From Nemertoderma westbladi (lineage: Eukaryota > Animalia > Xenacoelomorpha): a DNA stretch of 51,529 bases. The notes beneath the pieces were generated by a model. The model worked only from the letters and a program-made list of their open reading frames with translations, was not told the DNA's origin and did not search any database. A program made the translations under genes and the position numbers. The DNA is taken from positions 1 through 51,529 of the forward strand of contig JAUCBJ010008239.1 in the NCBI GenBank assembly GCA_032718475.1, given 5' to 3'. Within the stretch, counting starts at the first letter, position 1. Each line of letters starts with the position of its first letter. This document shows, piece by piece, positions 12,450 to 42,157 of the stretch.

Positions 12450-12571
12450 GAGGCGGAGCAACTTCGACAAGAAAACGAAGTTCTTAAGAAAAATTTGGTA
12501 GAACTTTATTACGCGGCTACAACGGAAATAGCAGAGCAAAGATCGAAAATCGCAGTGCTAGAACAATTACG
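12450..12571 (+). CDS. CASP8AP2: FLASH/CASP8AP2-like gene, exon 2 (N-terminal coiled coil, Lsm11-binding region in FLASH)
   Basis: Not in the ORF track. Acceptor TGTTTAG|GAG, donor TTACG|GTAAGT. Encodes EAEQLRQENEVLKKNLVELYYAATTEIAEQRSKIAVLEQLR, which aligns to FLASH [30 protein letters not shown] as I recall it. Ends in phase 2. Confidence 0.75.
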
Positions 12572-14726
12572 GTAAGTTTCTCGTCCATGGAACAATTACG
12601 GTAAGTTTCTCGCCCATGGAACAATTACGGTAAGTCCCTGTAACAATTAAGGTGAGTCCCTCGCCCTTGTCCGGAACAATTACGGTAAGTTCCTCGTGTC
12701 TGGAACAATTACGGTGAGTTCCTGTAACAATTACTTTAAGTTCCTCCTCCCTGGAACAATTACGGTAAGTTCCTCGTGAACCTCGTGTCTGGAACAATTT
12801 TGTTAAGTTTCTGGAACAATTACAGTAAGTTTCTGGAACAATTTCGTTAAGTTTCTGGAACAATTACGGTAAGTTCCACGTGCTTGGAACAATTACTGTA
12901 AGTCCCTCGTGTCTGGAACACTTACGGTAAGTTTCTGGAACAATTTCGTTAAGTTTCTGGAACAATTACTGTAAGTCCCTGCGTGAACCGCGTGTCTGGA
13001 ACAATTTCTTTAAGTTTCTGGAACAATTACGGTAAGTTCCTCGTGTCTGGAACAATTACGGTAAGTTCCTCGTGTCTGGAACAATTTCGTTAAGTTCCTG
13101 TAACAATTACGGTAAGTTCCTCCTCCCTGGAACAATTACGGTAAGTTCCTCGTGTCTGGAACAATTACGGTAAGTTCCTCGTGTCTGGAACAATTTCGTT
13201 AAGTTCCTGGAACAATTTCGTTAAGTTCCTGGAACAATTTCGTTAAGTTCCTGTAACAATTACGGTAAGTTCCTCGTCCCTGGAACAATTACGGTAAGTT
13301 CCTCGTGTCTGGAACAATTACGGTAAGTTCCTCGTGTCTGGAACAATTACGGTAAGTTCCTCGTGTCTGGAACAATTACGGTAAGTTCCTCGTGTCTGGA
13401 ACAATTACGGTAAGTTCGTCGTTCATGGAACAAATACGGTAAATCCCTCATCCATGGAACAATTACGGTAAGTTCCTCGTGTCTGGAACAATTACTGTAA
13501 GTTCCTGTAACAATTACGGTAAGTTCCTCCTCCCTGGAACAATTACGGTAAGTTCCTCGTGTCTGGAACAATTACGGTAAGTTCCTCGTGTCTGGAACAA
13601 TTTCGTTAAGTTCCTGGAACAATTTCGTTAAGTTCCTGGAACAATTTCGTTAAGTTCCTGGAACAATTTCGTTAAGTTCCTGTAACAATTACGGTAAGTT
13701 CCTCGTCCCTGGAACAATTACGGTAAGTTCCTCGTGTCTGGAACAATTACGGTAAGTTCCTCGTGTCTGGAACAATTACGGTAAGTTCCTCGTGTCTGGA
13801 ACAATTACGGTAAGTTCCTCGTGTCTGGAACAATTACGGTAAGTTCGTCGTTCATGGAACAAATACGGTAAATCCCTCATCCATGGAACAATTACGGTAA
13901 GTTCCTCGTGTCTGGAACAATTACTGTAAGTTCCTCGTGTCTGGAACAATTACGGTAAGTTCCTCGTGTCTGGAACAATTACGGTAAGTTCCTCGTGTCT
14001 GGAACAATTACGGTAAGTTCCTCGTGTCTGGAACAATTACGGTAAGTTCCTGGAACAATTTCGTTAAGTTCCTGTAACAATTACGGTAAGTTCCTCCTCC
14101 CTGGAACAATTACGGTAAGTTCCTCGTGTCTGGAACAATTACGGTAAGTTCCTCGTGTCTGGAACAATTACGGTAAGTTCCTCGTGTCTGGAACAATTAC
14201 GGTAAGTTCGTCGTTCATGGAACAAATACGGTAAATCCCTCATCCATGGAACAATTACGGTCAGTTCCGGTAATAATTACAGTAAGTTCCTCGTCCGGGA
14301 ATAATTACGGTAAGTTCCTGGAACAATTACAGTAAGTTCCTCGTGTCTGGAACAATTACGGTAAGTTCCGGTAACAATTACTGTAAGTTCCTCGTGTCTG
14401 GAACAATTACGGTAAGTTCCTCGTGTCTGGAACAATTTCGTTAAGTTCCTGGAACAATTTCGTTAAGTTCCTGTAACAATTACGGTAAGTTCCTCCTCCC
14501 TGGAACAATTACGGTAAGTTCCTCGTGTCTGGAACAATTACGGTAAGTTCCTCGTGTCTGGAACAATTACGGTAAGTTCCTCGTGTCTGGAACAATTACG
14601 GTAAGTTCCTCGTGTCTGGAACAATTACGGTAAGTTCGTCGTTCATGGAACAAATACGGTAAATCCCTCATCCATGGAACAATTACGGTCAGTTCCGGTA
14701 ATAATTACAGTAAGTTCCTCGTACGG
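12561..14726. repeat. Satellite of 29-bp and 22-bp units with higher-order structure (left part)
   Basis: Units GGAACAATTACGGTAAGTTCCTCGTGTCT and GGAACAATTTCGTTAAGTTCCT, roughly 80 units, each with an internal dyad GGAAC...GTTCC. Confidence 0.95.
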
Positions 14727-16646
14727 TAAATTGGAGAGATACGCCTATTCCTACTATCGGAAGAGACGGTAACAATACCTGCAATATCCTACTGTAAAGT
14801 TTGTAAATCAAATCATAAATCCGACCTTCTCACCAAAACAGTAAACCCCAAGTAAGCGAATATATTGCAGTATCGATCTCTTTTAACCGGTGAGGCAGAA
14901 AACAGTCTACGAGCAGACAAACTTCGATAAAACAAAATCCCGCGCAGCGAATCCTAAAATCAGGCTGACTCACTGACGGACTAAGAGGCTCGTATACTTT
15001 GCCGCGGTGTGATTTATATATGGTTGGGCAAAGGGACGCTAGCTAGGTACAGAGCAGATTTGGAGATGTCTAACTAGCGAGCAAAGTGCAGTAAGGACGA
15101 AAGTTAATTTTATATATTTCGAGGTGTAAATAATTTCTAACGCACGTGTGTTAATTCTGAACGGTCAAAGCAGTTTTGCTCCTTCACATATATAATTACT
15201 GGGTATGGTGTGCATTTTACGAATATTCTAATTTGTAACTTGTAGGTCCAATACTCACGAATGATAAGGTTCCTTCCCCTCTTGCGTATTTCCAGGACTC
15301 AAATTCAGGCATAAGGTTAATACTACGCCCAGAATTCGGCAATTTTAGGTACCAGGTCCCTGATACTAAGAAGAGATGTGTTAGTTTACTACTGTAGGCG
15401 TACGGGTACTAATAGCTATCCTGGCTCCTATCTAGAATTTTAGTCACCCAGGTAGTCCAGGTAACTTCCTATTAGGGCGTTGGCGGGGACACGGTAGATG
15501 TTAGTATATCCCTGATAGCCTCAATTTATTTGCGCCTAGCGTAAACTGCCCTACCGCCTGAACGGTACAATCCCAATTCAGGTGAAAACACAGCAACCCC
15601 TTTAGCCTACAAGTTCTGATGTAACGGACACCGTTGTACGGTAAATAGTCGCACACACACCTGTACTTAGCAAGAGTTAAGCGTACAGTTTGCTGCACCC
15701 TAACCAATGTGTATGCCTTGTACCGGTGTGCCTACGTCCTATCTGCGTACTAGTATCTGCTCTCTCTCTCTCTCCCCCCCGTAGGAATATGAAGGTCTAC
15801 TGCGGTTTTTCCTGAATCAAGACAGTACAGTCCCTATGATGTAATTTTAGGCTTGCAGCGTGTCACTACGTCTACCTTTGATCTTTTGGTCTTACACTTA
15901 GGTAGCAAGGATCGAACGCTGTCTAACCTTTCAGGCGATGGGCGAATAACTAGATGGTATTGCGGGTTGTCTCCCGTCTACATTCCCGTGATGTTCCCGT
16001 TCATTGCTGCGGCCCGATCTCTAGCTGGCCATCCTGTCCCTGAGTTTGTTCACCGTAGTGAAACCATATTAAAACAGATAGAAAAGGGCTGAGATGTGAC
16101 TAGTATTTCTGACTTTATTACAAAACATATAATAACTATTATACAATAAACAATGTAATCTGAAATAAGACAGAAAGCGAATGATGGAAATTGCAGTAGT
16201 GATTGAGAACTAATGAACGAATCGCACCTTTATATACTAAATTTGTGCCGCAATCAATCGAGAAAATTCTCGATTGTTCTATGGGTTCTAACAAGGTTTT
16301 AAAGATAGCTTATTGGTCCAGCTAATATATAACTTGCACGACATTGGTTACAATCAAATAACTACAGCCTTATTGGTACAGACAAATGCAATTAATTTGT
16401 AGCGGTTAATTTAAATGAGTTGAAATTCTGCACAAAAAATAATTCGCACTTACTAGGATTTGAACTCGATACCTACTATACTTATAATTTCCAACGCTCT
16501 ACCAACTGAGCTACTGAACCACTTGACCGATAGATGCATAATAGATAGAACCAATACTAATGAGAACTCAAAGCAATCTTTACAAAGTTAATTCGAATAA
16601 AATAAAATTTTGAAAATCCACGGCATTTAGGGAATATAATTCTATA
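14727..16646 (-). repeat. 3' LTR (1,920 bp)
   Basis: Direct repeat of 29774-31693 at a constant offset of 15,047. One substitution seen (15640 G vs 30687 A). Confidence 0.95.
16434..16520 (-). ncRNA. tRNA-derived Pol III-like unit inside the 3' LTR (U3)
   Basis: GGTTCAG-TAGCTCAGTTGGTAGAGC (A box/D arm)...GAGTTCAAATCC (B box)...TTTTTT terminator. Cloverleaf stems other than the D arm are poor. Confidence 0.55.
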
Positions 16647-16654
16647 CCGCTCCA
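16647..16654 (-). other. Short polypurine-tract candidate
   Basis: TGGAGCGG directly abuts the 3' LTR on the element strand. Confidence 0.5.
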
Positions 16655-17504
16655 TGAAAACAGGATATTATCGTGCATAAATATACGGTTTTCACCAATA
16701 ATCAATCAAACTATAGAATACTTAGGGCGTACTTACATATTTACAATTAAGTTTCAAACAATACTTCCTTTCTACGTAATGATTCGATACAAAATAATTA
16801 CAAATTCAAACTTTACGTATTTAAGGCTTTACTAAGTAAGTACAATATAAATCTAAATTAAATTCACCAATATAAATCTATTGCATCTCAAATATTGCAT
16901 AAATTCAAACAATTACAAATACAAATAAATGAAAACAATAAGAAAGGCTCGCGAGTCTTCCATCTACTATTGCATCTCAAATATTGCATAAATTCAAGTA
17001 ATTACAAATACTTTCGTACCTAAATGTAGATTGCATAAGTTTGGAATAATTACAAATATGAGTCTTTCTGAGCACAAAATTTTCTGTCTATAAAACTTTC
17101 TATTTCACTGTAAATACAAATACTGCTTATAAGATATAAATTGCATAATATTCGGAACAATATAAATTGCATAAGTTCAGAATAATATAAATTGCATAAG
17201 TTCGAAATAATCACGTAAATATAAGATATAAATTCTTACTAAATATAAATCTTACTAAATATAAGTCTTTACTTAAATATTAATATAAACTGCATAAGTT
17301 TAGAATAATATAAACCTTTGCATCTCAAATATGAAACATAAATCTTTCAAATATAAGTTCCTTCTAAATATAAACTTTCTAAATTTCATAAATTCGGAAC
17401 AATACAAATTGTATGAGTTTTCTAAATATAAAACATATAATTCAAAATAAATCACAAATCATAAGAAAGGCTCACGAGTCTTCCGTCCACCCTTGCCCTC
17501 CTTT

Positions 17505-18968
17505 TCATCGCTTAGTTGATCGAGCCCTGCCGCGTCCTCGAAAACTGCGCACAGGTGACTTTGCTCGCGATATGGGACTTGTGGGGCGAGTCACTGGTTT
17601 ACTTGGGACGTTGAGAGACGGTGCGACTATTTCCTCACAAATTCGTCTATTTGGCATCCCAAAACCTCGACCAATTCCTCGTGACCGATCAGTCGTCACT
17701 ACAGTTGGTAGAACGTCTGGGAACGCGTGAGAAGCGGACGACGCAGACCCAAGAGTAGCTTGCGCCCCCTGTTGATCAGCTGGTGTATGTCCCGATCCTC
17801 CTACTGGTTCTCTTGGAAGTGATACCGTATCCCGAGTAACTCGAATAGTCGGCTCAACTCCCTTGCGTTCTTCCACATTAATAATTTTCTTCAATTGTTG
17901 GCCCACTTTCTGGACCCGTATGATCCTACCCTGCCCGTCCTCCCGAGGGTGACGTGCAGACGGCGCAACCGGAGTGGCTGATATATTCGTCGCCTCTAGG
18001 ACCTCTTCTTCCTCGAATACGCTCGCTCGTATACGTTTATGGTAAAACGCGGCTCGGTACGCCCATGCGACGGTTAACCAAGCTCCTTTATTCCGCTTTT
18101 CGGTTCGGAAACGATCAAATTCACCATACGTGATACGATTTACGACTTTCTGAAAATTCCACGTGTTTTTGTTATCCGGGTGAATCTGTAACAGATACTC
18201 GCGCACCACTCGAAATCCGCTGTCGTGGGGCAAAATATCGACAACCTCGATAAGTTCGTCATACTGGGGCATAGCGGAGATATATCCTTCCGACATCATC
18301 GTCTGGGGATTTACCGCCCAAAATCCGAGATGCGCTCTCATCGGAAACCGTCTTCTTTGTGCCGATACATGTTCGTCGGCCAAATCTTCCCACTCATCAA
18401 ATAACTTCCTCACGAGTTTTACAGATTCATGTTCATAAGGTATGTCTCTTAGTTGGCATTCAGATGCTCGATGTCCCTTTATATTGCAGTAAGTACATTG
18501 AGCCATAAATCTCCAGCAAGTATAAAAGGTATGAGACCCTTGATCCCCACACCATCCACAGATTAGCTGAGTCGTAGTAATGTGCTTTCCACTGCACTTT
18601 GCCATATGATGTCCAGCGACGCCACATTTACTACACATCGTATTAGCAGGGTACCACACTCGTTCGTATATAAGATCTCCAATCGGTCGAGCGCTTCCTC
18701 CCATACTATAATCGTAATCATCTGGGTCTATGGGTTGGTAGGTTTCTGAAGGTTGTATACAAACTATAGCATCTGTTGCTTCAAGTTGTCGAATCTCCGT
18801 CTGAGATTTCTTCGGGAGGTTCCTTTCTATCTCAAGAAGTTCCTCTAAAGGATCGTCGGCGATCGTAGTAGTTACGTTGAAATCATCACCGAGGTGACCG
18901 ATAGGCGCGCGCGTCTGCCGTGATTCATCCGTAATTTCCACAATACGTTCTCCTTCATAAGGTAACAT
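17505..18968 (-). CDS. Retrotransposon accessory ORF3: triple CCHC zinc-knuckle protein with RG-rich tail (487 aa from first ATG)
   Basis: CSKCGVAGHHMAKC, CGWCGDQGSHTFYTC, CTYCNIKGHRASEC; C-terminal RSRGIGRG and RGRGRAR. No signal peptide or TM segment apparent. The frame is open back to about 19016. Confidence 0.8.
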   Translation of the reverse strand: MLPYEGERIVEITDESRQTRAPIGHLGDDFNVTTTIADDPLEELLEIERNLPKKSQTEIRQLEATDAIVCIQPSETYQPIDPDDYDYSMGGSARPIGDLIYERVWYPANTMCSKCGVAGHHMAKCSGKHITTTQLICGWCGDQGSHTFYTCWRFMAQCTYCNIKGHRASECQLRDIPYEHESVKLVRKLFDEWEDLADEHVSAQRRRFPMRAHLGFWAVNPQTMMSEGYISAMPQYDELIEVVDILPHDSGFRVVREYLLQIHPDNKNTWNFQKVVNRITYGEFDRFRTEKRNKGAWLTVAWAYRAAFYHKRIRASVFEEEEVLEATNISATPVAPSARHPREDGQGRIIRVQKVGQQLKKIINVEERKGVEPTIRVTRDTVSLPREPVGGSGHTPADQQGAQATLGSASSASHAFPDVLPTVVTTDRSRGIGRGFGMPNRRICEEIVAPSLNVPSKPVTRPTSPISRAKSPVRSFRGRGRARSTKR

Positions 18969-19621
18969 AGTTGTTGATGGTTCGAACACCTCGCCAATAT
19001 CGGTTCGGGATTTTCCTTATTCAAACGCATCGGAATCGCATTTCGTTGTTCGCGCATACAAGAACCGCATTGATAATAAAGTTTATAAACTGAAAATGCT
19101 TCTTTGGTTTCTCTATCGTCCCCTCGAGTTCGTCTGTAAAGATGCATTCCATCGAATTCATCACGTACCGCGGGCATAGGTTCGTGCGCCTTTAGGTATT
19201 GCATGGTATGATACAAACGACTAATTTCAGTATCGGGGTCTTCGCTAATGTCTCCCGTATCACACAAAGCATCGTACGGGTAAAGTTCGTTGAAGGTTTG
19301 GCGCAAACTTTCGATTCTTTCGTTCAATGCGTTTTGCCTTCTCTTTAATACATTCGAGTCATATTTAGTTCTCGCGAGTTTCGCTGTACTTTCCGATAAT
19401 TCTTTTATACCGAATATAGTATAATCCTTGGCTCCAAATCTTTCGAATGGCGCTGCTGCCTCCTCTTGGATATCATATCCCCACCTCGGCTCTCCTTGTA
19501 TCCCTTTCTCCATAATTAGAGGTGTAGTTACATAATCATTACTACTAGAGGGAATACAACAGAGTTTGTAGTTAGTTGTGAGGAGACGTGAGAGTTTCGT
19601 CTGCCCTTTGGGCTTCGACAA
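18872..19621 (-). CDS. Retrotransposon accessory ORF2, unknown function (first ATG 19513, 213 aa)
   Basis: Intact ORF with a helical/coiled segment (RRQNALNERIESLRQTF) and a possible CxxC...CxxH zinc site (CGSC...CSNH). Overlaps ORF3. Confidence 0.7.
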   Translation of the reverse strand: MSKPKGQTKLSRLLTTNYKLCCIPSSSNDYVTTPLIMEKGIQGEPRWGYDIQEEAAAPFERFGAKDYTIFGIKELSESTAKLARTKYDSNVLKRRQNALNERIESLRQTFNELYPYDALCDTGDISEDPDTEISRLYHTMQYLKAHEPMPAVRDEFDGMHLYRRTRGDDRETKEAFSVYKLYYQCGSCMREQRNAIPMRLNKENPEPILARCSNHQQLCYLMKENVLWKLRMNHGRRARLSVTSVMIST

Positions 19622-20174
19622 CGCTCTAACCTCCTACCCATAGCCTAAGATCTAGGGTTTCTTTAATGACACGCTGCTTCTTATCTAAAAATTTTTGCCG
19701 AAATAAAAACGAATTTGGGCTAAACTGGCTGTGAGTCTAAAATACTCACTTTTTGATCCCAAACTATTATCAGAAAATAAGCAGTCAAGAATTAGTAATA
19801 AATATAGGGGAGTCTATTTTGACGTAACTTATTGAAACAAGACCGTGTAAAATTTTAATTAAAATTTTAAGAAAGGCTCGCAAGTCTTCCTCTCTTGTTT
19901 CTCTAATTTTAAGTTCCACCCGACTGTACCCTGAAATCTATTCACTGGAGAAAATTTTAAAAATTTTTCAAATCCAAATGGATTGTCTAAAATTTCGAAA
20001 ATGTCTCAATATTGTGAGTTCCAAGTAGAATTCCATTTCTTATACCTACAAATCCCGCTCCTATGTGACACATAAGGGTACTACCCTCAATGTTCACATA
20101 TAAAGACAATGGAATTCTACCGCTGTCCTTAATACGGTGTACAGGTACGTGGAAATCTATTTGTAAACTCCTAA

Positions 20175-23100
20175 TTATTTACTAGTATTAGGTGGAGATT
20201 TGTAGTCTCCAGACTCGTTACGAGTCTCTTCAAGAAGTACGAGACGTTGAGTCGGTCTGTCTACTGTACGACCGTCAATTGTCCGTACTGTCACAGTTCT
20301 TGTCACTCCATCCATAGATGGATGTGTGGCTAAAATGACACCTGTTATCCAGAAGCGTCTTTTTAGATTCACTTCTGCCAACAGCACGTGATCTCCCGGC
20401 TTTAATGCGCGGGTGTTATTGTACCAGTTTGTTCTGGCAGAAATAGAGGGCAAATAATGGTTTTGCCATATTTCCCAGAATTTGTTAGCTAGTAATTGCG
20501 TGATTTTCCACGCTTTTCTCCCGTAACTATCGCTTTCCATTGGAATGGAAAGCGGCGTCAAAGTCGTCGGTGCCTGCATTAGCAGGTGTGCCGGTGTCAA
20601 AGCAAACTGGGATTGTTTGTCATCGGGTACTAATACTATTGGTCTAGTATTTAGTATTGCCTCGATTTCAACAAACAATGTTGTCAGTTGGTCGTCTGTT
20701 AATATGTGGTTTACTGGAATGACCTTTGCCATGGCTGTCTTTATAGATCTAATCAATCTCTCCCAGACTCCGCCTCTCCAAGGACTATCTGGAGGATTGA
20801 ACTTCCAAACAATCTTGTGAGGTTGCAGTTCGTTTGAGATTTGATCATGATCTAATTTCTTAAAGGCTCTAGCAATCTCATTCCGAGCACCAACAAAGTT
20901 TGTCCCTTGGTCTGAGTACAAGCATTTTACTAATCCGCGTCTAGCGATAAATCGCCGTAGTGCTAGTATAAACGCGTTGGTGGAAAGATCCATCACACGT
21001 TCAATGTGAACTGCCCTACTGGACATACATGTGAAAATCAGTCCCCAGCGTTTTACTAGTATACGTCCACGTTTAGTATGTATGGGACCAAAGCAATCAA
21101 TTCCAGTCTCTGTAAAAGGTGGTCTGAATGCTTGAAGTCGTGCTTGTGGTAGTTCACTCATTTCTTGGGTACCTATTCTAGAATGTACCTTTTTACAAAT
21201 AATACACGTACGTGTCACTGAACTTAATGCTTTACTGGGTCTAATTAATACAAATCTAGTACGTAAGTAGGAAAGACAGTGGTGTCTTCCAGCGTGTTTC
21301 AGATGTAAATGTGCGTCCAGTATCATTGCACGTTGTAGTTCGTGGTGTTGCGGTATTATTATTGGGTACCTAAAGTTCGTGTTAAAGTCAATGTTTTGAA
21401 GCCGAGATTTATGACAAATTAAGCCATTATAAATAATCGGACTCCAACTCAGTATCGGTGACGACTTGATTGGTTGACCTTGATTTATAGATGTGAATTC
21501 GCGCGCGAAATATCGCAGTTGGTAATGGCGAATTAATTTAATCTCACACCTGTCAATCTCAGCCAATGTAAGTCGACGTGTGAAGTCACGTTTGCCTTTA
21601 ACGTATTGTACAAAACGTACAATCCACGCTAATTTTCGGCAAGCGTTTGACCAAGAATCTGTTAGGTTTACAATACGGTCGACATAAGTATTTGTGACGT
21701 CATCAGGTAAGTCAATGGAGAACTTGGAAGGTTTCGAATTACTAGAAGGGCCCACGGGTCCGCCGGTAAGTATTCCCTTGTTGACTGTTGATCCGTCCGG
21801 GTCTACAAGTAATTTGTCCTTCTTTGTCTTCTTACCTTGATTGTCGGTACTTTGTAAGTCGATCGTTAATGGTGGTTTGAACTCTATGGGGTCAGCAGGT
21901 TTCGGTAAACTTATTTTTCTGCCGACATTAATCCCAGGTCTCACCACAGGTTGTAAGTTCGGTATGTCTCTTGAGCGCAAAGTAACACCTGTATTTACAT
22001 TAGCGTAGGTACTACCCACATCTGCAATACATGAGGTTTCACCATGCTTATGGTTGCCCAAGTGTGTCAAAATTGGTAGTTTGTCAATACAAGGCCGCTC
22101 CAATAGGGAAACTGCGGCTTTATTGTTAGTCAATACATTACTAGTGTCTAGTCGACTGTCTAGTAGTGTGTCTGGCGATACGTCTGGTAACGTATCTGGT
22201 TGTTTGTCACTAGAAGGCCGCTCCAATAGGGAAACTGCGGCTTTACTGTTTGTCAGTGTGTTACTAGCGTCTGGTGGGACATTTTGTGATATGTCTGGCA
22301 AAATGTCTGGTTGGCTGTCTAGTAACATGTCTGGTTGACCGTCTGGCGATATGTCTGGTGTAGAAAGGCTCGCAAGTCTTCCTCTCTTGACCTTTGAAGT
22401 TATATCCTTCCATTTCGCCTTCGGTTTTTTCTTGAGTTTCGCCGCCGTCGTCCTTTTCTTTGTCTTCCCCTTTTTTGGTTTCTTGATTTCGGCGTCCTTA
22501 GGAATGGTGTTGGACTTGTTGTCGTATAACGGAGGCCAATCTTGTGTCGATTTCTGCAAGAACTGGGGTCCGTGTTGCCAAAACTCTTTGTTCTCCGGTT
22601 TACAGAATTCCTCAGGCATCATTCCTCGCGACGCAATATCAGCTGGGTTTTGTGGTCCGGGACAATGTCGCCAATCCTCTTTTATCGAACGGTCTAGAAT
22701 CTCTGCGCGACGGTTAGCTACGAATGTCTTGAATTCGAGTGTGTCGTTGTTTATGTAAAATAAAACCAACGTCGCGTCAGTCCAATAAAATATCTGTAAA
22801 CTCGACTGTAGTTCTGTCTGTATGAGGTTCACGATGGTGGTTGACAGGGTCGCGGCTTGTAGCTCGGCTCGTGGTGTCGTCATATACTTAGTAGGCATGG
22901 TCTTAGCCTTGGAAGTAATGAGCGAAACATCGAACTCGTCTGATTCTACTTGTCTGCGCAAATACGCTGCCACACCAAACCCGTTGTCACTGGCGTCAGA
23001 AAAACAGTGTAGTTCCAAGTTGTCAGGAAATGTACTCTGTAATGGAAAGTAAACCCTGGGTATGGAATAATCCTCTAACGAAGACAATTCCGCCTCCCAG

Positions 23101-26100
23101 GTCTTCCATAAGTCCACTTGATCTGATGAGATCGGCTCGTCCCACGTTAGTCCATCCTTCCATATACTGCGCATATAAATGCGGGCTTGCAGTATTACTG
23201 GACTGATGAATCCTAACGGGTCGAACAATCGGCTCAACTTTGACAAGCATGATCTCTTGGTCAGTGTGTTTCCTTGACTGTCCAGTCTCACCTTCACTCG
23301 AAAGTTGTCTGTGTTTGGGTCCCAAAAGAGCCCCAACACCTTAGTCGTCGGTAGTGGTTCGAACTCTAGGTCTATGTCACCACCTCCACGCTCAGTAGTT
23401 CCGAATGAGTCAACTAATTCGGCACTGTTTGAGGCGAATTTGGTGAGGTTAAAACCTCCGCTCGCCAAGCAGTCCCGTAATTGATGTGCTACTGTTGTAG
23501 CACGTTCTACTGTGTCGCAACTCTGTAGTCCGTCATCAACGTAAAAGTCACGTTCTACAATTCTAATTATCTCTGGGTCATACAGATGTTTCTGATCTCT
23601 AGCGGCTTGCTTCAAGGCGTACATCGTACAATTCGGGCTGTCTCTGGCACCGAAAACGCGAACTTGCATTTGGTAAGTCGCTGGTGGTAGACTTAAGTCC
23701 CCTTCCGGATACCAGAGAAACCGCAAACTGTCTCTGTCTCGCTCTAACGCTTTCACTTGGTGAAACATCGCTTCAACGTCGCAAGTAAAGGCTACTTGAC
23801 GCTGACGGAAGCGCATAATCACCCCCATAAGATAATTATTCATGTTCGGTCCATCCATCAACTCACTATTGAGGGACATTCCCTCAAACAGAGCCGCACA
23901 GTCATTGACTACGCGTACTTTATCTGGTTTGTCGGGATGTCTCACATAGTGATGTGGCAAGTAGTACGTCTGGTCTGTCACTCGCTCCGGGTTAGTCATT
24001 CGGATAGCGTATCCCTTCGTCAAATACGTCTCCATCTGAGTGTTGTACTGCAGATGGGCTTTCTCGTCCTTTAATAGACGTTGTCGGATTGAGTGTAGAC
24101 GTCTTAAAGCCAGTGGGTAGTTATTTATAAGTTTAGGACTTTGGCTACGCCATAACATACCCACCTCGTAATGTCCGTCCTCCGTCTGTCGGATAGTATC
24201 CTCCATGATCTTTAGAGATTGTTTCTCCTGTTCCGACATACAAGGGTCGTAGCTACCAGGTTCAGCTGTATCTTGTTCTAACCACCTGATAGTCTTCTCC
24301 GTTAATTCTTTGTCCAAGGCGGCTTGTTCCAACTGATGAATTTTCAACGCGTCATCGTCGATATCGATGGGCACTGTTGAAGTTATTGGGGTAGGTAGAC
24401 TCGCAAGCCTATCATCTGTCGTCGATGGAATCTCTAGCTGATTCGTCTTCTCCCCAAGTTCTAAACTCACCTTGTGGATTAGCTGCTCCTTGTGACTTAT
24501 CATACTAGTTACACGTCTGTGATGTTTTGTCGACTGTAGCGTAGTATGGTTCACGTCGTGTGAAAAGGAATGAATTGAGTTTGTAGTCAATAAACTACAT
24601 GTACTCTGTACGTCGTCTTCCTCGTCACTTACGTCCAGTGTGCGCACAGGCGCTCGAGTATACCACCCTATCGGCGTTCTGCAGGCGTATGCGTTTCCTG
24701 CTACAACTGCCGATGGTCTGGTTTCCCACACCTGATGTAGGTTGAATTGGTCCGTCCCGATCAGCATTGCTACCGATCTATAATTGACAGGACATTCGGG
24801 TACACCAAGGTGTCTGAAATACTTACGGTCCTCCAGAGATTGTTCCGGCACTGGACCTAGTAGGTTACTAAAGTCCTTCGTGGCCGCAAAGGTTAGATCT
24901 CTAAAGGGCAACAAAGACCTCTCCCTCTCGCTGTGTTGCGATTTTGGAAGAAGAGAGTCTAAGTCCAACTTAACTCGTGTCACTGGTATTGCACGCTGTC
25001 CGTGCATACTACTTACTGTATAACTGACGTGCTTACCTTGTCTAAGATCTGTTACGACGTCAGCTATCTTTTCATCTACGTAACTGTGAGATGAGGCTGA
25101 GTCTAGAATCGCGTAAATCCTCTTACTCCCTTTTGTGCCAGTAACTTTAATCGGGATTACACTGAATCCCTTCAGTTGGTCAGTGGTCAGGAGCGCGATT
25201 GACGGTTGTTCGTCTCCATTTGAATATTCGTCGTCTTCTGATTCTTCGTCCGACGATCCGGATTGTTCTGAAAAGCAATCCTCTATATGGGTCACGAAAG
25301 TCGGAGTTGTTTTCGATTCCCGTTTTCGGTAAGCCGCATCACATCTCGCTGCTGCTTCCGGGTGTTCCCTGGCGAAGCGTTTCGTCGGCGTGTGGCTGTC
25401 TGTGTGGAGCAGACCGTCGTGGTTGCGTCCACAGGATGGACAAGTGTCGGTATTTGGGCAATCCTTACGGACGTGTCCGTGTTGCGTACACCGCCAACAA
25501 GAGTCCAGTGGCCGTATCTGCAGCCGTCGTTCTTCTGAGTTCAACTCGCGAAATTGTCGACAACCCCGTAACTTGTGACCAATATACCGCTTACCTAAAT
25601 GTTCGCAGTATTGGCAGCCGTTGAAGTCGGCGCTGAGTTGCTGTCTCGTCTGTTTTGTCCCAATGGGCGCAGATACTCTATTACCGTCTGAGAATTGTCG
25701 TGATTCCGTCGGTGTGGCGTAAGTGGCCGTCTTTGTGGATGTTGTCTGGGGTTTTTGTCGGTTGGAGGATGGCAGTGTGATCCCTTCTGCCACGATGTGC
25801 TGGTCGGTATAGTTAGATCGAGTTTCTACTACCGCCTCCCTGGATATTAAAAGGTACACATCTTCTAATTTCAGGAATCCTCCTCGCTCCTCTCGCTGAT
25901 ATTCGACCTTCCTCCACTCCCGACGAAGTCGATGGTGGAGTCGTCCTATTATCTTTAATAAAACGGTAGGGGTATTTCCGTAATCAAGTTGTCCAATTGA
26001 TCTTAAGGTAGTGATAGCGTTCTTGATTTCGTCAGCTAGTTTTAGTAAGTCGACGGGTTTAGTGATAGCCCCTCCCTTACAGAGTTCTTCTATTACTGAC

Positions 26101-28961
26101 CTGGCCATACTCACTGTACCTCCGTATATCGAAGTCAAACGATCGTACGCTAGTTCGAAAGCGTCTGGTACACCGACGAAAGTCTCCGCCAAACGTTTAG
26201 GTTCTCCTGACAACGTTTGGAGCAGGTAATTGAACTTCTCCCGTGATGTAAAGGCGCACACGGCGATCTGGGATTCGATATAGTCTACGAAGGTATGCCA
26301 GTGTTTTGAGCTACCGGAGAACTTCGGTGGTTGTTGTACCGGCAATCCCTGTCTGGCTGCGAATTTCGCTATCTCCTCGGCAACGTTCAGAGTTTCGCGT
26401 CCTTGGTTGGTAGTCTGGTTGATGTTCTCCCTTCTAGGCGCTTTTCCCTGATACGATGTGGGGTTTGAAGGTACCGGTCTTTGTGGTCCCTTCGGGTGTC
26501 TATTGTGTTCGAATTCGGAATTTCTCGAACTGTCGGTGTAACCTTCCTCCAGACGTTCCTCAATCCGGGCCAACTTGTTGACAATGTCGGCGAACTGTTG
26601 CGCACCGATCGCGCCCGCTGGTGGTAACGCCTTCTGTGTCGGTGTATTCTGTGGTGGATTATCTGCAAAAGAGTTGTCTGAACGCTCGCGTTTATATTCA
26701 TCGGCCGCCCCCGTTCTAAATACCTCGCGTTTCGGGTAATCCGATTCGCTCGAAGTACTACTATCATCTGGATATGGTGGTCGACGTGCTCGCGTTCGTT
26801 GCGTCGTTCGAATTCTAACGGCTCGTTTCGGAACATCGTCCACTGATCTCCGTTGTTCGGTAGGCTCACAAGTCTTCCTCGAAGTCGTAGATTGCGATGT
26901 AAACTGGTTGAACGGTCGCGTCTCCACTGTTCTCCGTTGTTCGGTAGGCTCACAAGTCTTCCTCGAAGTCGTAGATTGCGATGTAAACTGGTTGAACGGT
27001 CGCGTCTCCACTGTTCTCCGTTGTTCGGTAGGCTCACAAGTCTTCCTCGAAGTCGTAGATTGCGATGTAAACTGAACCGGTGGGCGAATGACAGCATTTG
27101 AAACCGCTGGCCTTGTTGGTCGAAACGTCATTGGGTAAGCGTAATGTGTAACGGGTTTTGGTGTCAAAGGTGGACTCACCTGTTTTGTCGTCAGTAGTGC
27201 AGGTCCGACTAATAAACTACTACGATCTGTAATCGGTGGGTTACTTACCTTGACTCTCGGAATAGGCGACGACGTTGCTCTTGGCGGTATAAACTCGTTC
27301 GGAATAACAAACCTGTGTTCCGTCGCACCATGGATAGGAGAAATATCACTACTACCCGCAATCGAAACAGGTTCCTTAGTCGTAACCGGTGCAAACATAT
27401 GAGTTACCTGTGGGAATCGTTGACACACGTCTTTTACTAATTGTCGTTCCCGTCCGGGTGCTCCTACGCTTCCTTCCTTCTTCCGTTCCTGAATTTGGCG
27501 ATGTCTTACCTCTAACTGGTCCAAATCATGTCCGTCGCGAGATCTCATCGATCGATCGCGGGCTAGAAGATCCAGATTTTCCTTAGTTTCGGCTAATTCT
27601 CTCGCCCTCTTCTCAAGTTCGAAACGAAGTTTAACTTCCTTTTCTCGTTGTTCCGTTTGTTGTTGTTGCGCCTCGAACTCTGCTTGTCGTATCGCTTGTT
27701 GGGCTTTTATTTGCCGTGTCTTCATCTCGACTCTGGCTTCCGAAACTACTCTTTGTCGCTCTAACTCTGCCGCAGCCGTTTGTCGCTCTAACTCTGCCGC
27801 AGCCGTTTGTCGCTCTAACTCTGCCGCAGCCGTTTGTCGCTCTAACTCGGCCGCTGCCGCTGCCGTTTGTCGCTCTAACTCGGCCGCTGCCGCTGCCGTT
27901 TGTCGCTCTAACTCGGCTGTTGCCGTTCGTTGCGCTAACTCGGCCGCTGCCGCTTGTTGGGCAATGTCCAACTCTAACCTTTCCATTTCGGCCGCTTCGA
28001 GTTCGGCTTGTTCCTGCAGATGAGAGATTCTCGCTACATTCGCAACACGTATTTTCTCTTCCTCTACTGCTGTTTGTATCATTAGAAGTTGAGCTTGTTC
28101 TTCTATCTCGTGTTGCTGTCTGTAGAACTGCTGCTGTTGTCGAGCAACTTCTGACGTGACTATACTTCCTTCGCAGATTTCGCTACGAATACTTACCAAT
28201 GATTGATTTAGTATTCCCGGTGCCGATTCGATTTGTGCGAATGAAGTTTCCCTCGTGTATTCCGGCACGGTTTCCAAATCGCCGACGTCTTCGCCGCACA
28301 TGCGTAAGTGGTCCGTCAGATGTTTCAATTGTCCATCCAGTCGGTACAATTCCTGTTCTTCCTCGGGTTGTAATAATTCGTCCGAAACTGACTCACCTAA
28401 CAACTGGTCCGCTTGTTCCTGTTGTATCTGTCTAATCGTCGACTTAAACTGAATCAGTTTCTCTCTAGTGATCATTAGTTTCTCGAGGATTCTAAGTTGA
28501 GTATCCATGTCCTGTCTCTGTCTAGCTAGATCTTGTAGGCCAACTAGATTATCTACGGACTTATATACTTTACTCTGTACTCTAACCTGGAGGGTGTAGA
28601 ACTCGAATCGAGACATCGGAGCGGTCAACCCGTCTAATATGCGTTGGCCTTCTCCAATACTCCTGGTTATATGCGCCATGTATCCTCCGACGCTTCTAAC
28701 CACACTTTCTGTGCTTCCTGCTGAACTTACCAATTCCGTTTCCCTGTATCTAGGTTGCGGAACAGTTAGAAAGTCCTCGGTCCTGCCGTCGCCTCGTACT
28801 ACGGCATCCGGTACTCCCGTTGGATGTACTGGTGACGCACACGGTGTAGGTTCGGTAGGCTCGCGAGTCTTCCCCTGTGGTTCTTCCGCTGCTGACTTAT
28901 CCGCGTCACATGAGTCATAGTCGGTTTGTGTATTTTTCGTATAGTCTTGTTTGTCACTCAT
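20175..28961 (-). CDS. gag-pol: BEL/Pao Gag-Pol polyprotein, 2,928 aa (Gag-PR-RT-RNaseH-IN)
   Basis: Gag PKFSGxxxxWxxF (DUF1759-type); three BEL knuckles (CQYC..H..C, CWRCTQHGHVRKDC, CPSCGRNHDGLLH); protease AILDSAS; RT YLPHH, CDVEAMFHQV, FYVDD; RNase H FSDAS, PRAELQAA, WTD, NPADIASRG; integrase HHCC, GIDCFGP, SDQGTNF, GGVWERLI. Confidence 0.97.
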   Translation of the reverse strand: MSDKQDYTKNTQTDYDSCDADKSAAEEPQGKTREPTEPTPCASPVHPTGVPDAVVRGDGRTEDFLTVPQPRYRETELVSSAGSTESVVRSVGGYMAHITRSIGEGQRILDGLTAPMSRFEFYTLQVRVQSKVYKSVDNLVGLQDLARQRQDMDTQLRILEKLMITREKLIQFKSTIRQIQQEQADQLLGESVSDELLQPEEEQELYRLDGQLKHLTDHLRMCGEDVGDLETVPEYTRETSFAQIESAPGILNQSLVSIRSEICEGSIVTSEVARQQQQFYRQQHEIEEQAQLLMIQTAVEEEKIRVANVARISHLQEQAELEAAEMERLELDIAQQAAAAELAQRTATAELERQTAAAAAELERQTAAAAAELERQTAAAELERQTAAAELERQTAAAELERQRVVSEARVEMKTRQIKAQQAIRQAEFEAQQQQTEQREKEVKLRFELEKRARELAETKENLDLLARDRSMRSRDGHDLDQLEVRHRQIQERKKEGSVGAPGRERQLVKDVCQRFPQVTHMFAPVTTKEPVSIAGSSDISPIHGATEHRFVIPNEFIPPRATSSPIPRVKVSNPPITDRSSLLVGPALLTTKQVSPPLTPKPVTHYAYPMTFRPTRPAVSNAVIRPPVQFTSQSTTSRKTCEPTEQRRTVETRPFNQFTSQSTTSRKTCEPTEQRRTVETRPFNQFTSQSTTSRKTCEPTEQRRSVDDVPKRAVRIRTTQRTRARRPPYPDDSSTSSESDYPKREVFRTGAADEYKRERSDNSFADNPPQNTPTQKALPPAGAIGAQQFADIVNKLARIEERLEEGYTDSSRNSEFEHNRHPKGPQRPVPSNPTSYQGKAPRRENINQTTNQGRETLNVAEEIAKFAARQGLPVQQPPKFSGSSKHWHTFVDYIESQIAVCAFTSREKFNYLLQTLSGEPKRLAETFVGVPDAFELAYDRLTSIYGGTVSMARSVIEELCKGGAITKPVDLLKLADEIKNAITTLRSIGQLDYGNTPTVLLKIIGRLHHRLRREWRKVEYQREERGGFLKLEDVYLLISREAVVETRSNYTDQHIVAEGITLPSSNRQKPQTTSTKTATYATPTESRQFSDGNRVSAPIGTKQTRQQLSADFNGCQYCEHLGKRYIGHKLRGCRQFRELNSEERRLQIRPLDSCWRCTQHGHVRKDCPNTDTCPSCGRNHDGLLHTDSHTPTKRFAREHPEAAARCDAAYRKRESKTTPTFVTHIEDCFSEQSGSSDEESEDDEYSNGDEQPSIALLTTDQLKGFSVIPIKVTGTKGSKRIYAILDSASSHSYVDEKIADVVTDLRQGKHVSYTVSSMHGQRAIPVTRVKLDLDSLLPKSQHSERERSLLPFRDLTFAATKDFSNLLGPVPEQSLEDRKYFRHLGVPECPVNYRSVAMLIGTDQFNLHQVWETRPSAVVAGNAYACRTPIGWYTRAPVRTLDVSDEEDDVQSTCSLLTTNSIHSFSHDVNHTTLQSTKHHRRVTSMISHKEQLIHKVSLELGEKTNQLEIPSTTDDRLASLPTPITSTVPIDIDDDALKIHQLEQAALDKELTEKTIRWLEQDTAEPGSYDPCMSEQEKQSLKIMEDTIRQTEDGHYEVGMLWRSQSPKLINNYPLALRRLHSIRQRLLKDEKAHLQYNTQMETYLTKGYAIRMTNPERVTDQTYYLPHHYVRHPDKPDKVRVVNDCAALFEGMSLNSELMDGPNMNNYLMGVIMRFRQRQVAFTCDVEAMFHQVKALERDRDSLRFLWYPEGDLSLPPATYQMQVRVFGARDSPNCTMYALKQAARDQKHLYDPEIIRIVERDFYVDDGLQSCDTVERATTVAHQLRDCLASGGFNLTKFASNSAELVDSFGTTERGGGDIDLEFEPLPTTKVLGLFWDPNTDNFRVKVRLDSQGNTLTKRSCLSKLSRLFDPLGFISPVILQARIYMRSIWKDGLTWDEPISSDQVDLWKTWEAELSSLEDYSIPRVYFPLQSTFPDNLELHCFSDASDNGFGVAAYLRRQVESDEFDVSLITSKAKTMPTKYMTTPRAELQAATLSTTIVNLIQTELQSSLQIFYWTDATLVLFYINNDTLEFKTFVANRRAEILDRSIKEDWRHCPGPQNPADIASRGMMPEEFCKPENKEFWQHGPQFLQKSTQDWPPLYDNKSNTIPKDAEIKKPKKGKTKKRTTAAKLKKKPKAKWKDITSKVKRGRLASLSTPDISPDGQPDMLLDSQPDILPDISQNVPPDASNTLTNSKAAVSLLERPSSDKQPDTLPDVSPDTLLDSRLDTSNVLTNNKAAVSLLERPCIDKLPILTHLGNHKHGETSCIADVGSTYANVNTGVTLRSRDIPNLQPVVRPGINVGRKISLPKPADPIEFKPPLTIDLQSTDNQGKKTKKDKLLVDPDGSTVNKGILTGGPVGPSSNSKPSKFSIDLPDDVTNTYVDRIVNLTDSWSNACRKLAWIVRFVQYVKGKRDFTRRLTLAEIDRCEIKLIRHYQLRYFAREFTSINQGQPIKSSPILSWSPIIYNGLICHKSRLQNIDFNTNFRYPIIIPQHHELQRAMILDAHLHLKHAGRHHCLSYLRTRFVLIRPSKALSSVTRTCIICKKVHSRIGTQEMSELPQARLQAFRPPFTETGIDCFGPIHTKRGRILVKRWGLIFTCMSSRAVHIERVMDLSTNAFILALRRFIARRGLVKCLYSDQGTNFVGARNEIARAFKKLDHDQISNELQPHKIVWKFNPPDSPWRGGVWERLIRSIKTAMAKVIPVNHILTDDQLTTLFVEIEAILNTRPIVLVPDDKQSQFALTPAHLLMQAPTTLTPLSIPMESDSYGRKAWKITQLLANKFWEIWQNHYLPSISARTNWYNNTRALKPGDHVLLAEVNLKRRFWITGVILATHPSMDGVTRTVTVRTIDGRTVDRPTQRLVLLEETRNESGDYKSPPNTSK

Positions 28962-29043
28962 TTCGGTAGTTGTAAGTCAAGTGAAGTGAGTGTCAAAGTA
29001 TCGAGTTTACCGTATTTGTATAAAACGGTACTAATTACAGTCA

Positions 29044-29168
29044 TATAAAATTAGCCTACCGGCCGATTTTATAGCAGATGGATAAAATTAGCCTAAACGG
29101 CCAATTTTACAGCAAATAAATGTCACGGAATAAGTATATAATAAAATTAGCCTAGCGGCCAATTTTAT
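29044..29168 (-). other. Three tandem hairpins in the 5' leader (packaging/dimerisation signal candidate)
   Basis: Three copies of ATAAAATTAGCC-(4-5 nt)-GGCCRATTTTA just upstream of the gag ATG. Confidence 0.55.
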
Positions 29169-29762
29169 AACAAATAAATCAGATAACGATATGCGTTATC
29201 AAAAGGTAAATTAAATACAATAATACGGACTAATTCAGCAATGAACAAAGAAATCGTACGGAATGCATAAATACTTGAGACAGTGGAACCCACAATAATT
29301 TTAACTAAATACGGTAATGCCTAACTTATTTATGCAACTTTTCGAACTCACCCACTCCAATAATTCTCCAGAAAAACAGATTCCCAGATACAAACCGAAC
29401 GTGAACCTTTCCGTTTTTTAACGTTGCGGACGAAACGCGATTTTCCCAACCAAAGTTGTTGAGTTATCTATCTCCCAAACTTGCTAAACACGGTCTTGCT
29501 CCCGTTACAGTCTAGAAAATGAGTTCTGAATCCTGAAAAACAAAAGAGTTAGGTTTTACTTTACGAAAAATTTTGTACCGGTACAATATGGTATTTAAAC
29601 CCTTTTAAACACCGGTATTCAATTCCAAAAAATATTTTACACGCGGTTCAAATCAAATTTTATTTCAAAAAATTAGCACTTAGCTAATCAAATACAAAAT
29701 TTTACCTCAAAATACAAAATTTTCAAATAACTTTAGTCCTACCGAACCGTAGTTCAGTAAAA

Positions 29763-29773
29763 CATATTCCTAC
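29763..29773 (-). other. Primer-binding-site position, non-tRNA type (GTAGGAATATG)
   Basis: Abuts the 5' LTR, lacks TGG, and is the exact reverse complement of LTR positions 30828-30838. Confidence 0.6.
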
Positions 29774-31254
29774 TAAATTGGAGAGATACGCCTATTCCTA
29801 CTATCGGAAGAGACGGTAACAATACCTGCAATATCCTACTGTAAAGTTTGTAAATCAAATCATAAATCCGACCTTCTCACCAAAACAGTAAACCCCAAGT
29901 AAGCGAATATATTGCAGTATCGATCTCTTTTAACCGGTGAGGCAGAAAACAGTCTACGAGCAGACAAACTTCGATAAAACAAAATCCCGCGCAGCGAATC
30001 CTAAAATCAGGCTGACTCACTGACGGACTAAGAGGCTCGTATACTTTGCCGCGGTGTGATTTATATATGGTTGGGCAAAGGGACGCTAGCTAGGTACAGA
30101 GCAGATTTGGAGATGTCTAACTAGCGAGCAAAGTGCAGTAAGGACGAAAGTTAATTTTATATATTTCGAGGTGTAAATAATTTCTAACGCACGTGTGTTA
30201 ATTCTGAACGGTCAAAGCAGTTTTGCTCCTTCACATATATAATTACTGGGTATGGTGTGCATTTTACGAATATTCTAATTTGTAACTTGTAGGTCCAATA
30301 CTCACGAATGATAAGGTTCCTTCCCCTCTTGCGTATTTCCAGGACTCAAATTCAGGCATAAGGTTAATACTACGCCCAGAATTCGGCAATTTTAGGTACC
30401 AGGTCCCTGATACTAAGAAGAGATGTGTTAGTTTACTACTGTAGGCGTACGGGTACTAATAGCTATCCTGGCTCCTATCTAGAATTTTAGTCACCCAGGT
30501 AGTCCAGGTAACTTCCTATTAGGGCGTTGGCGGGGACACGGTAGATGTTAGTATATCCCTGATAGCCTCAATTTATTTGCGCCTAGCGTAAACTGCCCTA
30601 CCGCCTGAACGGTACAATCCCAATTCAGGTGAAAACACAGCAACCCCTTTAGCCTACAAGTTCTGATGTAACGGACACCGTTGTACAGTAAATAGTCGCA
30701 CACACACCTGTACTTAGCAAGAGTTAAGCGTACAGTTTGCTGCACCCTAACCAATGTGTATGCCTTGTACCGGTGTGCCTACGTCCTATCTGCGTACTAG
30801 TATCTGCTCTCTCTCTCTCTCCCCCCCGTAGGAATATGAAGGTCTACTGCGGTTTTTCCTGAATCAAGACAGTACAGTCCCTATGATGTAATTTTAGGCT
30901 TGCAGCGTGTCACTACGTCTACCTTTGATCTTTTGGTCTTACACTTAGGTAGCAAGGATCGAACGCTGTCTAACCTTTCAGGCGATGGGCGAATAACTAG
31001 ATGGTATTGCGGGTTGTCTCCCGTCTACATTCCCGTGATGTTCCCGTTCATTGCTGCGGCCCGATCTCTAGCTGGCCATCCTGTCCCTGAGTTTGTTCAC
31101 CGTAGTGAAACCATATTAAAACAGATAGAAAAGGGCTGAGATGTGACTAGTATTTCTGACTTTATTACAAAACATATAATAACTATTATACAATAAACAA
31201 TGTAATCTGAAATAAGACAGAAAGCGAATGATGGAAATTGCAGTAGTGATTGAG

Positions 31255-31423
31255 AACTAATGAACGAATCGCACCTTTATATACTAAATTTGTGCCGCAA
31301 TCAATCGAGAAAATTCTCGATTGTTCTATGGGTTCTAACAAGGTTTTAAAGATAGCTTATTGGTCCAGCTAATATATAACTTGCACGACATTGGTTACAA
31401 TCAAATAACTACAGCCTTATTGG
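31255..31423 (-). promoter_or_regulatory. Candidate Pol II promoter in the LTR: three CCAAT boxes, TATA box, Inr
   Basis: CCAAT near 31422, 31393 and 31363, TATATAAAG at 31283-31275, TTAGTT at 31260-31255. An AATAAA lies about 95 nt downstream. Confidence 0.5.
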
Positions 31424-31480
31424 TACAGACAAATGCAATTAATTTGTAGCGGTTAATTTAAATGAGTTGAAATTCTGCAC

Positions 31481-31567
31481 AAAAAATAATTCGCACTTAC
31501 TAGGATTTGAACTCGATACCTACTATACTTATAATTTCCAACGCTCTACCAACTGAGCTACTGAACC
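31481..31567 (-). ncRNA. tRNA-derived Pol III-like unit inside the 5' LTR (U3)
   Basis: Same sequence as 16434-16520: A box, B box, T6. Confidence 0.55.
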
Positions 31568-31693
31568 ACTTGACCGATAGATGCATAATAGATAGAACCA
31601 ATACTAATGAGAACTCAAAGCAATCTTTACAAAGTTAATTCGAATAAAATAAAATTTTGAAAATCCACGGCATTTAGGGAATATAATTCTATA

Positions 31694-31794
31694 TACGGGA
31701 ATAATTACGGTAAGTTCCTGGAACAATTACAGTAAGTTCCTCGTCCCTGGAATAATTACGGTAAGTTTCTGAAACAATTACAGTAAGTTTCTGG
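31694..31794. repeat. Continuation of the 29/22-bp satellite after the retrotransposon
   Basis: Same GGAACAATTACRGTAAGTT units resume immediately after the TSD. Confidence 0.9.
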
Positions 31795-32171
31795 AGAGTT
31801 GGGTTCATTGCCATAAGCTGTTTAGAGAATATTGCTTTAGTTTACGTAACACAAAGTTAGAAGCGAGCTAATTTCGTAATATCTGATATACAAAATCATG
31901 TTTCTAGTAGTGTGCCTAATGGTGTCTCACACCCTGGTGTGTGTCGTAATCTCTTTGAAATGATACTTCTTATTTTTTTGAATACCGTAACTCAACCCCC
32001 GGTCATTGAAAATAAGAGATTATGATTGAACAATGAACAACCTTTGATATTATGACATAATTTTTATTTTTTATTTGTTTATTGTATATTGTTTATTTAT
32101 TTGTGAATTTATCGTGAATCGGATTTGATAATATGGATTAGGAGATTATTACGGTTGGTGGAATAGCCATA

Positions 32172-34921: not shown

Positions 34922-35177
34922 ATTGAAAAATTATAGAGACCAAAAGTGACCAAAACAAAGTTAATTGACGTATATTACGGCCAACAGGCCTTTATTCAAC
35001 GTCTAAAGTCAGGTTTATTTATTTAAACACCGAACCGACGGACTGACAGCTGTCAGTCCGTCGGTTCGGTGTTTAAATAAATAAACCTGACTTTAGACGT
35101 TGAATAAAGGCCTGTTGGCCGTAATATACGTCAATTAACTTTGTTTTGGTCACTTTTGGTCTCTATAATTTTTCAAT
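34922..35177. repeat. Perfect spacer-less palindrome, 2 x 128 bp
   Basis: Centre GACTGACAG|CTGTCAGTC between 35049 and 35050. Arms are complementary out to 34922/35177. Confidence 0.95.
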
Positions 35178-41869: not shown

Positions 41870-42157
41870 AATTATAACCCTAGAATACGAAATATTAATT
41901 TTTCTTTATATTATATTTTATAATTTAACTTTCTTTGCCTTCTTCAAATCCAGTGAGCAGAAAGAGGGCGTTCTGCATCTTATGTTAAATCTTAAAATAA
42001 AAAATAAAATAAACATTAATTGAAAGAATGTATTATTGGCTAGTGAAAAAAAGCATTACTTTCTTTCATTATTTTTCAAAATTTGAGTAAGTAGGCACTT
42101 CTAATTTTTCAGGGTGTTGTTATTTAATTTAATACAATTTAATTACTTTATTTCCAG

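Follow-up and report, generated by a model that had tools for sequence, protein, structure and literature searches.

A 20-nucleotide motif recurs eleven times on one strand of a BEL/Pao LTR retrotransposon within the window (the whole stretch of DNA analysed, 51,529 nucleotides). The motif is real, element-specific and under selection, and it is probably an RNA hairpin signal whose mechanism is putative. We tentatively favour the reading that it is a multi-copy, protein-stabilised RNA hairpin, read by a zinc-knuckle protein of the element (ORF3 or Gag), that marks the RNA for export or packaging. The element and its parts are:

14727 to 31693, minus strand: BEL/Pao LTR retrotransposon, 16,967 bp, with a 5-bp target duplication
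29774 to 31693, minus strand: 5′ LTR, 1920 bp, TA...TA ends, no motif copies
14727 to 16646, minus strand: 3′ LTR, one mismatch to the 5′ LTR
20175 to 28961, minus strand: gag-pol, one intact ORF of ~2930 aa with expanded linkers and three Gag Cys/His knuckles
18872 to 19513, minus strand: ORF2, a 213-aa orphan, helical in its N-terminal half, with Cys/His at its C-terminal end; overlaps ORF3
17505 to 18968, minus strand: ORF3, 487 aa, with three CCHC-type knuckles (aa 112-171), an orphan middle and a basic tail
30828 to 30838, minus strand: putative self-primer and inferred transcript start, 11 nt (LTR positions 856-866)
29763 to 29773, minus strand: primer-binding position, exact complement of the LTR 11-mer

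By its enzymes the element belongs to BEL/Pao, yet it is atypical. Its Pfam domains are DUF1759, Peptidase_A17, Integrase_H2C2 and DUF5641; PF05380 (the Pao peptidase family) is found in all 120 of the best listed RT/RNase H relatives (top identity ~44%); and, as in Belpaoviridae, a single gag-pol between the LTRs encodes protease, RT, RNase H and integrase in that order. According to the ICTV profile, Belpaoviridae genomes measure 4.2-10 kb with LTRs of 0.2-1.2 kb, and their primer site consists of 18 nt complementary to host tRNA-Arg or tRNA-Gly (PMC8742986). The element described here differs in being larger than that range (17.0 kb, with 1920-bp LTRs), in carrying two extra ORFs without an env-like match, and in having no tRNA-type primer site, as no TGG start follows the 5′ LTR. 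Extra ORFs in LTR elements are already known (PMC5408684, in excerpt). Priming is likely to be tRNA-independent, by the element's own RNA: complements in the LTR exist for 11 of its 13,117 internal 11-mers, the primer in a fold of 1.1 kb pairs with a probability of 0.9-1.0 at 10 of its 11 positions and is then followed by a 12-bp hairpin, and the arrangement agrees with the definition of a self-primer in the available excerpt of PMC6317226. Self-primed lineages include Tf1/sushi, Tcn1 and TAR/Houba (PMC6317226 and PMC4600332, both in excerpt). A stretch of each LTR (~16445-16520 and 31492-31567, minus strand) has a tRNA-derived look by eye, with A- and B-box-like sequences, and received no call from ARAGORN or Rfam.

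The single mismatch between the LTRs indicates a young insertion. It lies in a 22/29-bp satellite array (12561-14696 and 31698-31795), is bounded by the 5-bp target duplication, and has LTR termini of TA...TA instead of TG...CA (window positions 14727 and 31693). The family is abundant and polymorphic, with 17,248, 603 and 7,393 matching contigs in three studies of one organism, and 80-90% relatives occur among the same contigs; a sequencing run labelled as a second organism also holds near-identical pieces at low depth. Family variation was taken from contigs of 4 of the 9 listed sequencing runs; no RNA run was listed as containing the element. The 12 best-supported indels fall at 11 places, none of them within the three ORFs (82% of the stretch), and the gag-pol variants in the list divide into 20 synonymous and 9 non-synonymous changes (0.34 expected). 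Among the 40 listed of ~986 variable family places, none falls in a motif, where ~0.7 would be expected, too small a difference to be informative. Elsewhere in the window, 34922-35177 is a perfect 128-nt inverted repeat without a spacer, either a true palindrome or an assembly artefact; two plus-strand low-complexity ORFs (42143-48394, 2083 aa, with a 21-bp coding tandem repeat, and 36613-38418, 601 aa) have no Pfam match and are probably exons of a host gene; and 5237-5992 (plus strand) is an RVT_1 fragment (E 7e-17) of another retroelement, which contains no motif copy.

The eleven copies of the motif, referred to below by their first coordinate, are:

28854 to 28873, minus strand: copy 1, gag N-terminus; loop CGCG
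27027 to 27046, minus strand: copy 2a, within the 84-bp triplication; loop UGUG
26943 to 26962, minus strand: copy 2b, within the 84-bp triplication
26859 to 26878, minus strand: copy 2c, within the 84-bp triplication
24394 to 24413, minus strand: copy 3, variant in the protease-RT linker, with G·U at 6/15 and U-A at 3/18; loop UGCG
22363 to 22382, minus strand: copy 4, RNase H-integrase linker; loop UGCG
21745 to 21764, minus strand: copy 5 (new), integrase-side end of the RNase H-integrase linker; loop CGUG
19871 to 19890, minus strand: copy 6, non-coding, in the interval between pol and ORF2; loop UGCG
18900 to 18919, minus strand: copy 7 (new), ORF2/ORF3 overlap, with pair 8/13 altered on both sides; loop CGCG
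17465 to 17484, minus strand: copy 8, 20 nt past the ORF3 stop; loop CGUG
16942 to 16961, minus strand: copy 9, 3′ UTR; loop CGCG

An initial annotation of this DNA had reported nine copies at about seven independent loci. All nine are present where it placed them; eight match its consensus exactly on the minus strand, and 24394-24413 is the variant that it described. A symmetric pattern allowing up to two mismatches returns exactly these nine sites in 51.5 kb, against a mean of 0.05 in shuffled sequence. With 18900-18919 and 21745-21764 added the total rises to eleven, and the seven loci among the original nine become nine. The further particulars of that annotation also held: the 84-bp tandem triplication is found (2.8 copies), the 28 nucleotides shared by 22363 and 19871 resolve as 7+20+1, the coding copies are read as KT(R/C)EP and RLASL, and alignment to homologues places them in linkers. 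The count excludes a perfect hairpin at 21271-21290 whose loop differs (E 0.84-0.87) and a twelfth candidate at 24910, in which the loop is absent. Only one family of 12-mers recurs at three or more distant places, and it is the motif (3 of 3 such 12-mers). The LTRs, the leader and 34.5 kb of flank are free of copies, the first copy being situated ~90 nt into gag. Among the seven loci, identity is 0.83 within the 20 nucleotides and 0.25 and 0.26 in the 30-nt flanks; since identity drops to the random level immediately outside the motif, exactly this stretch has been kept.

Eight of the copies are coding and three are non-coding, and the motif is read in different frames as well as in non-coding DNA, which makes three reading contexts. 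Of 120 homologues, none aligns at the four gag copies and 5-10 align at the two original pol copies, and the linkers that hold the pol copies measure 325 aa (median 73) and 165 aa (median 70). That the copies lie in lineage-specific linkers of two to four times the usual length indicates that the motif arose with the expansion of this lineage's genome. It is well supported that the motif is a selected cis-acting signal, because it has sharp edges, three reading contexts, non-coding copies and no occurrence outside the element. A protein-level repeat or protease site is ruled out by the three reading contexts and the non-coding copies. A link to splice sites was rejected, as the copies have no consistent donor or acceptor in their vicinity, and a tRNA or a known Rfam RNA is likewise ruled out, Rfam giving no match up to E 1 in 14500-32000.

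We also searched for relatives of the motif. The strict motif has no match in viral contigs, where a search for RT/RNase H likewise returned no loci, and 26 single strict matches in metagenome contigs, none of which has a second copy or tblastn or blastn similarity to the element, were treated as chance. Six 16-nt variants of the motif had no match in the supplements of PMC3118150 (2.0 million characters, probably a fraction of its element sequences). Thus the viral contigs, the metagenome contigs and these supplements yielded no related element that has the motif. Within the family itself, 36 nt around copy 9 (16933-16968) are joined to sequence resembling ~17095-17102 in contigs of two runs; in some members the 3′ UTR that contains the motif may be rearranged or duplicated, although mapping in this repetitive region is ambiguous.

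Copies are spaced 0.5-2.5 kb apart, the one triplication aside. On an RNA of ~15.3 kb, with its start inferred from the self-primer and its end from the LTR poly(A) signal, the largest gap between copies is 2465 nt, which for nine loci gives P 0.006 under a uniform model and 0.01 if placement is limited to linkers. P becomes 0.05 when the internal region is taken by itself, and 0.03-0.14 with all eleven copies, so that even spacing is suggestive only.

The pairing potential of the motif was followed through the two new copies. The first, 18900-18919, was originally found by sequence alone (3 mismatches), and 21745-21764 by a covariance model, as a copy outside the training set (E 0.005). When a covariance model, a check proposed in the initial annotation, was trained on the seven original loci, its two best-ranked new sites across the window were these same copies, 18900 with 16.8 bits (E 0.005) and 21745 with 13.8 bits (E 0.05), both on the element sense strand; an identical alignment without structure gave one of them an E of 0.77 and did not return the other up to E 10. 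A descriptor free of stem sequence recovers 10 or 11 sense copies and none in the LTR or the 34.5 kb outside, with 0.05-0.09 in shuffles. Both new copies alter the two bases of pair 8/13 together (U-A to G-C and U-A to C-G), 21745 additionally alters 4/17 (A-U to G-C), and both retain the A·C at 6/15 and the YGYG loop. The stem changes in 21745 alter the protein and are therefore not codon noise. Over the nine loci, double-sided change affects 3 of 8 pairs and covariation is 0.229 versus 0.144±0.035 in shuffles (5 of 500), a test that is biased because 21745 was picked by a structure-aware model; once this copy is left out, covariation no longer exceeds that of shuffles (89 of 500). Eight of the nine loci have A·C at position 6/15 and one, 24394, has G·U, and a swap of A·C for G·U preserves wobble geometry (isostericity). 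On the transcribed strand all nine loci have guanine at loop positions 2 and 4, and every loop change is C to U on the sense strand, that of 24394 included. The listed family variants contain no excess of sense-strand C-to-T changes, so this polarity is not a simple mutation bias.

The main rival is a site in double-stranded DNA, a dyad of two 8-bp half-sites around a CpG-like core, at which dimeric ORF2 or a dimeric host factor would keep the long element active in transcription or free from silencing, as the VANDAL/VANC systems of plants do. The dyad is near-perfect, its sequence is highly invariant, and no folding is required. Three stem pairs are invariant, and the seven original loci agree at 12 of 20 positions, invariance that is more typical of a DNA site. 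Copy 24394 fits the opposite strand with 2 mismatches, as compared with 4 on the minus strand, and because A·C reverse-complements to G·U it is equally an inverted DNA site; its protein context (RLASLPTP versus RLASLSTP) suggests a direct rather than an inverted copy. A single-sequence model of ORF2 predicts two helices, 42-78 and 97-110, which by eye we take to resemble a helix-loop-helix; however, ORF2 has no helix-loop-helix match in Pfam, in PDB sequences or in a fold search with the low-confidence model. VANC motifs multiply by tandem duplication (PMC5735166, in excerpt), as the 84-bp triplication recalls, but they are dense and mainly non-coding, whereas 8 of the 11 copies here are coding. 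A protein reading bases in DNA would further not be expected to leave mirror-image double changes in two copies, or loop changes of a single polarity, and the 1920-bp LTR contains neither a copy nor a half-site. On balance we regard a DNA site as unlikely.

As for the hairpin proposed in the initial annotation, its pairing is kept, but on the element strand it is weak and shuffled sequences fold as well. The five consensus copies that were folded give -0.4 to -2.0 kcal/mol, a value matched by 124-171 of 200 shuffles; the weakness arises because 6/15 is A·C in eight of nine loci. With 40-nt flanks none of ten copies forms the sense hairpin at more than 50% probability, with 100-nt flanks two of ten do so, and for 21745 the probability in context is near 0. 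So weak a hairpin would need to be stabilised by its protein.

The motif might instead act through palindromic RNA-RNA contacts, forming extended duplexes between or within genomic RNAs that dimerise or compact the genome, as the PAL sequences of Ty1 do. The loop is self-complementary in 16 of 16 cells for eight loci when G·U is allowed, isolated self-duplexes reach -17 to -24 kcal/mol in seven of eight loci (the eighth has -8), and forced dimers have central pairs in 24 of 36 sense cases versus 16 of 36 antisense. In context, 24394 binds other copies at -12 to -24 kcal/mol; most pairs without it bind at only -2 to -15, largely the range of random sequence (mean -5.6, 5th percentile -13.2). 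With the compensatory changes peculiar to each of them, 18900 and 21745 no longer pair with most other copies, and selection for duplex strength should have repaired the A·C mismatch. Dimerisation of Ty1 is driven by PAL1 and PAL2 (PMC6844567, in excerpt), but these sit in the 5′ UTR. Contacts of this kind appear distinctly improbable as the explanation of the motif.

Still less probable, to the point of being very doubtful, is a hairpin on the opposite strand, in antisense RNA or minus-strand cDNA, where 6/15 would become an ordinary G·U. Antisense RNA does fold better, at -3.9 to -4.9 kcal/mol for consensus copies, and forms the hairpin in 5 of 10 contexts, but single-stranded DNA reaches only 0 to -1.7 kcal/mol, 24394 would break the core on that strand, and we know of no antisense transcript of the element. 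Least probable of all are functionless by-products of template switching or duplication during linker expansion: the copies do sit at insertion-tolerant places, three come from a tandem duplication, two share 28 nt and neighbours share a few 3′ flank bases, but flank identity is no higher than random as soon as the 20 nt end, degenerate copies still keep pairing, and no other 12-mer occurs at three distant places.

The protein-stabilised RNA hairpin needs a reader, and both candidates are encoded by the element, Gag and ORF3 having three Cys/His knuckles each. ORF3 also has a basic tail (net +11 over its last 37 aa) and contains 2 export-signal-like patterns, versus 5.0 in shuffles; its listed family variants, 3 synonymous and 4 non-synonymous, are uninformative. 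It has no homologue among near-length proteins, its two matches to cluster representatives are both knuckle-only and lead to unrelated Gag-like proteins, and its Atlas leads, to CCHC proteins, are below 0.9. ORF2 has no match in Pfam, PDB sequences or other protein searches, and a fold search with its low-confidence model gave none at E 0.001; the AlphaFold models of ORF3 (pLDDT 34) and ORF2 (pLDDT 40) are unusable. The two ORFs overlap by 145 nt (18872-19016), their frames being related by -1; a slippery-like heptamer stands where the overlap begins, a fold of -38.7 kcal/mol is predicted, and a fused ORF2-ORF3 protein made by frameshifting is possible.

Based on these observations we propose that the eleven copies would fold as weak hairpins in the element RNA and be stabilised by protein, with RNA and not DNA as the form that is read. 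The knuckles would hold the loop at G2 and G4, as those of HIV nucleocapsid do. ORF3 is the predicted reader, about twice as probable as Gag, on the ground that it and the motif are equally lineage-specific. Spaced at 2.5 kb or less, the sites would nucleate a coat on an RNA roughly double the usual size, and the 15-kb RNA would in this way carry marks along its whole length for export or packaging. A bolder version, in which ORF3 and eleven operator hairpins in coding linkers form a distributed counterpart of Rev/RRE that coats the 15-kb RNA and lets a retrotransposon double its genome size, seems to us rather unlikely. The dispersed cis-acting RNA signal suggested in the initial annotation thus gains from the compensatory changes in the two extra copies and the fixed loop guanines, and loses from poor folding energy and the lack of relatives. 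Knuckle-binding tetraloops, palindromic dimer sites and extra ORFs in LTR elements are each already known; literature searches that left out most subscription journals returned no report of a dispersed multi-copy motif in the coding linkers of an LTR retrotransposon. BEL/Pao replication is poorly understood and has been inferred from other families, and the only RNA signals in the Belpaoviridae profile are the primer site and the polypurine tract (PMC8742986). The motif and the orphan knuckle protein make up a small, directly testable protein-RNA pair. If the proposal is correct, recognition of a retroelement genome can spread through coding sequence rather than the leader, which suggests how a retrotransposon copes with an RNA of about twice the normal size.

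Several known systems resemble this arrangement in part. VANDAL/VANC of Arabidopsis shares an element-specific short motif in a single orientation, tandem duplication and an orphan protein encoded by the element, but it belongs to a DNA transposon and its motif is a 9-bp non-palindromic DNA sequence, dense and mainly non-coding (PMC5735166, in excerpt); the copies here do not form dense non-coding arrays. Cer1 CERV of C. elegans and HIV-1 Rev/RRE likewise join an extra, probably spliced, nucleic-acid-binding ORF to a long unspliced RNA that has to be exported; CERV, an accessory protein of an LTR retrotransposon, is needed for export of the genomic RNA and surrounds RNA fibrils (PMC10309623, in excerpt). 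As described in the same excerpt, CERV has a ring-forming domain with a Cys loop and is unrelated to ORF3, and a term search of PMC10309623 found no cis-element for it. The comparison with Rev/RRE, drawn in the initial annotation, fits only loosely. Rev multimerises on one structured region, which is confined to unspliced RNA, whereas we find eleven separate 20-mers, at least three of which lie 3′ of both candidate splice acceptors (19945 and 19542, pattern matches only) and would therefore also be present in a spliced ORF2/ORF3 message.

The retroviral packaging tetraloops bound by nucleocapsid include HIV-1 SL2 (GGUG) and SL3 (GGAG) and SL-C of the RSV micro-Psi, and MoMuLV has multiple UCUG sites. 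The RSV loop is UGCG. These signals share with the motif a four-base loop with fixed G2 and G4, several equivalent sites, and CCHC knuckle proteins supplied by the same element, and in SL2 and SL3 of HIV-1 it is the second and fourth G of the tetraloop to which the nucleocapsid knuckles bind (PMC7599994, in excerpt). Guanines occupy loop positions 2 and 4 in 9 of 9 loci here. The packaging tetraloops are, in contrast, clustered in the 5′ leader, while the motif is distributed over gag, pol, the extra ORFs and the 3′ UTR, and its stem, with the fixed A·C, is much weaker and not stable free of protein. The motif is therefore neither an RRE nor a classical packaging signal, and it may work like either.
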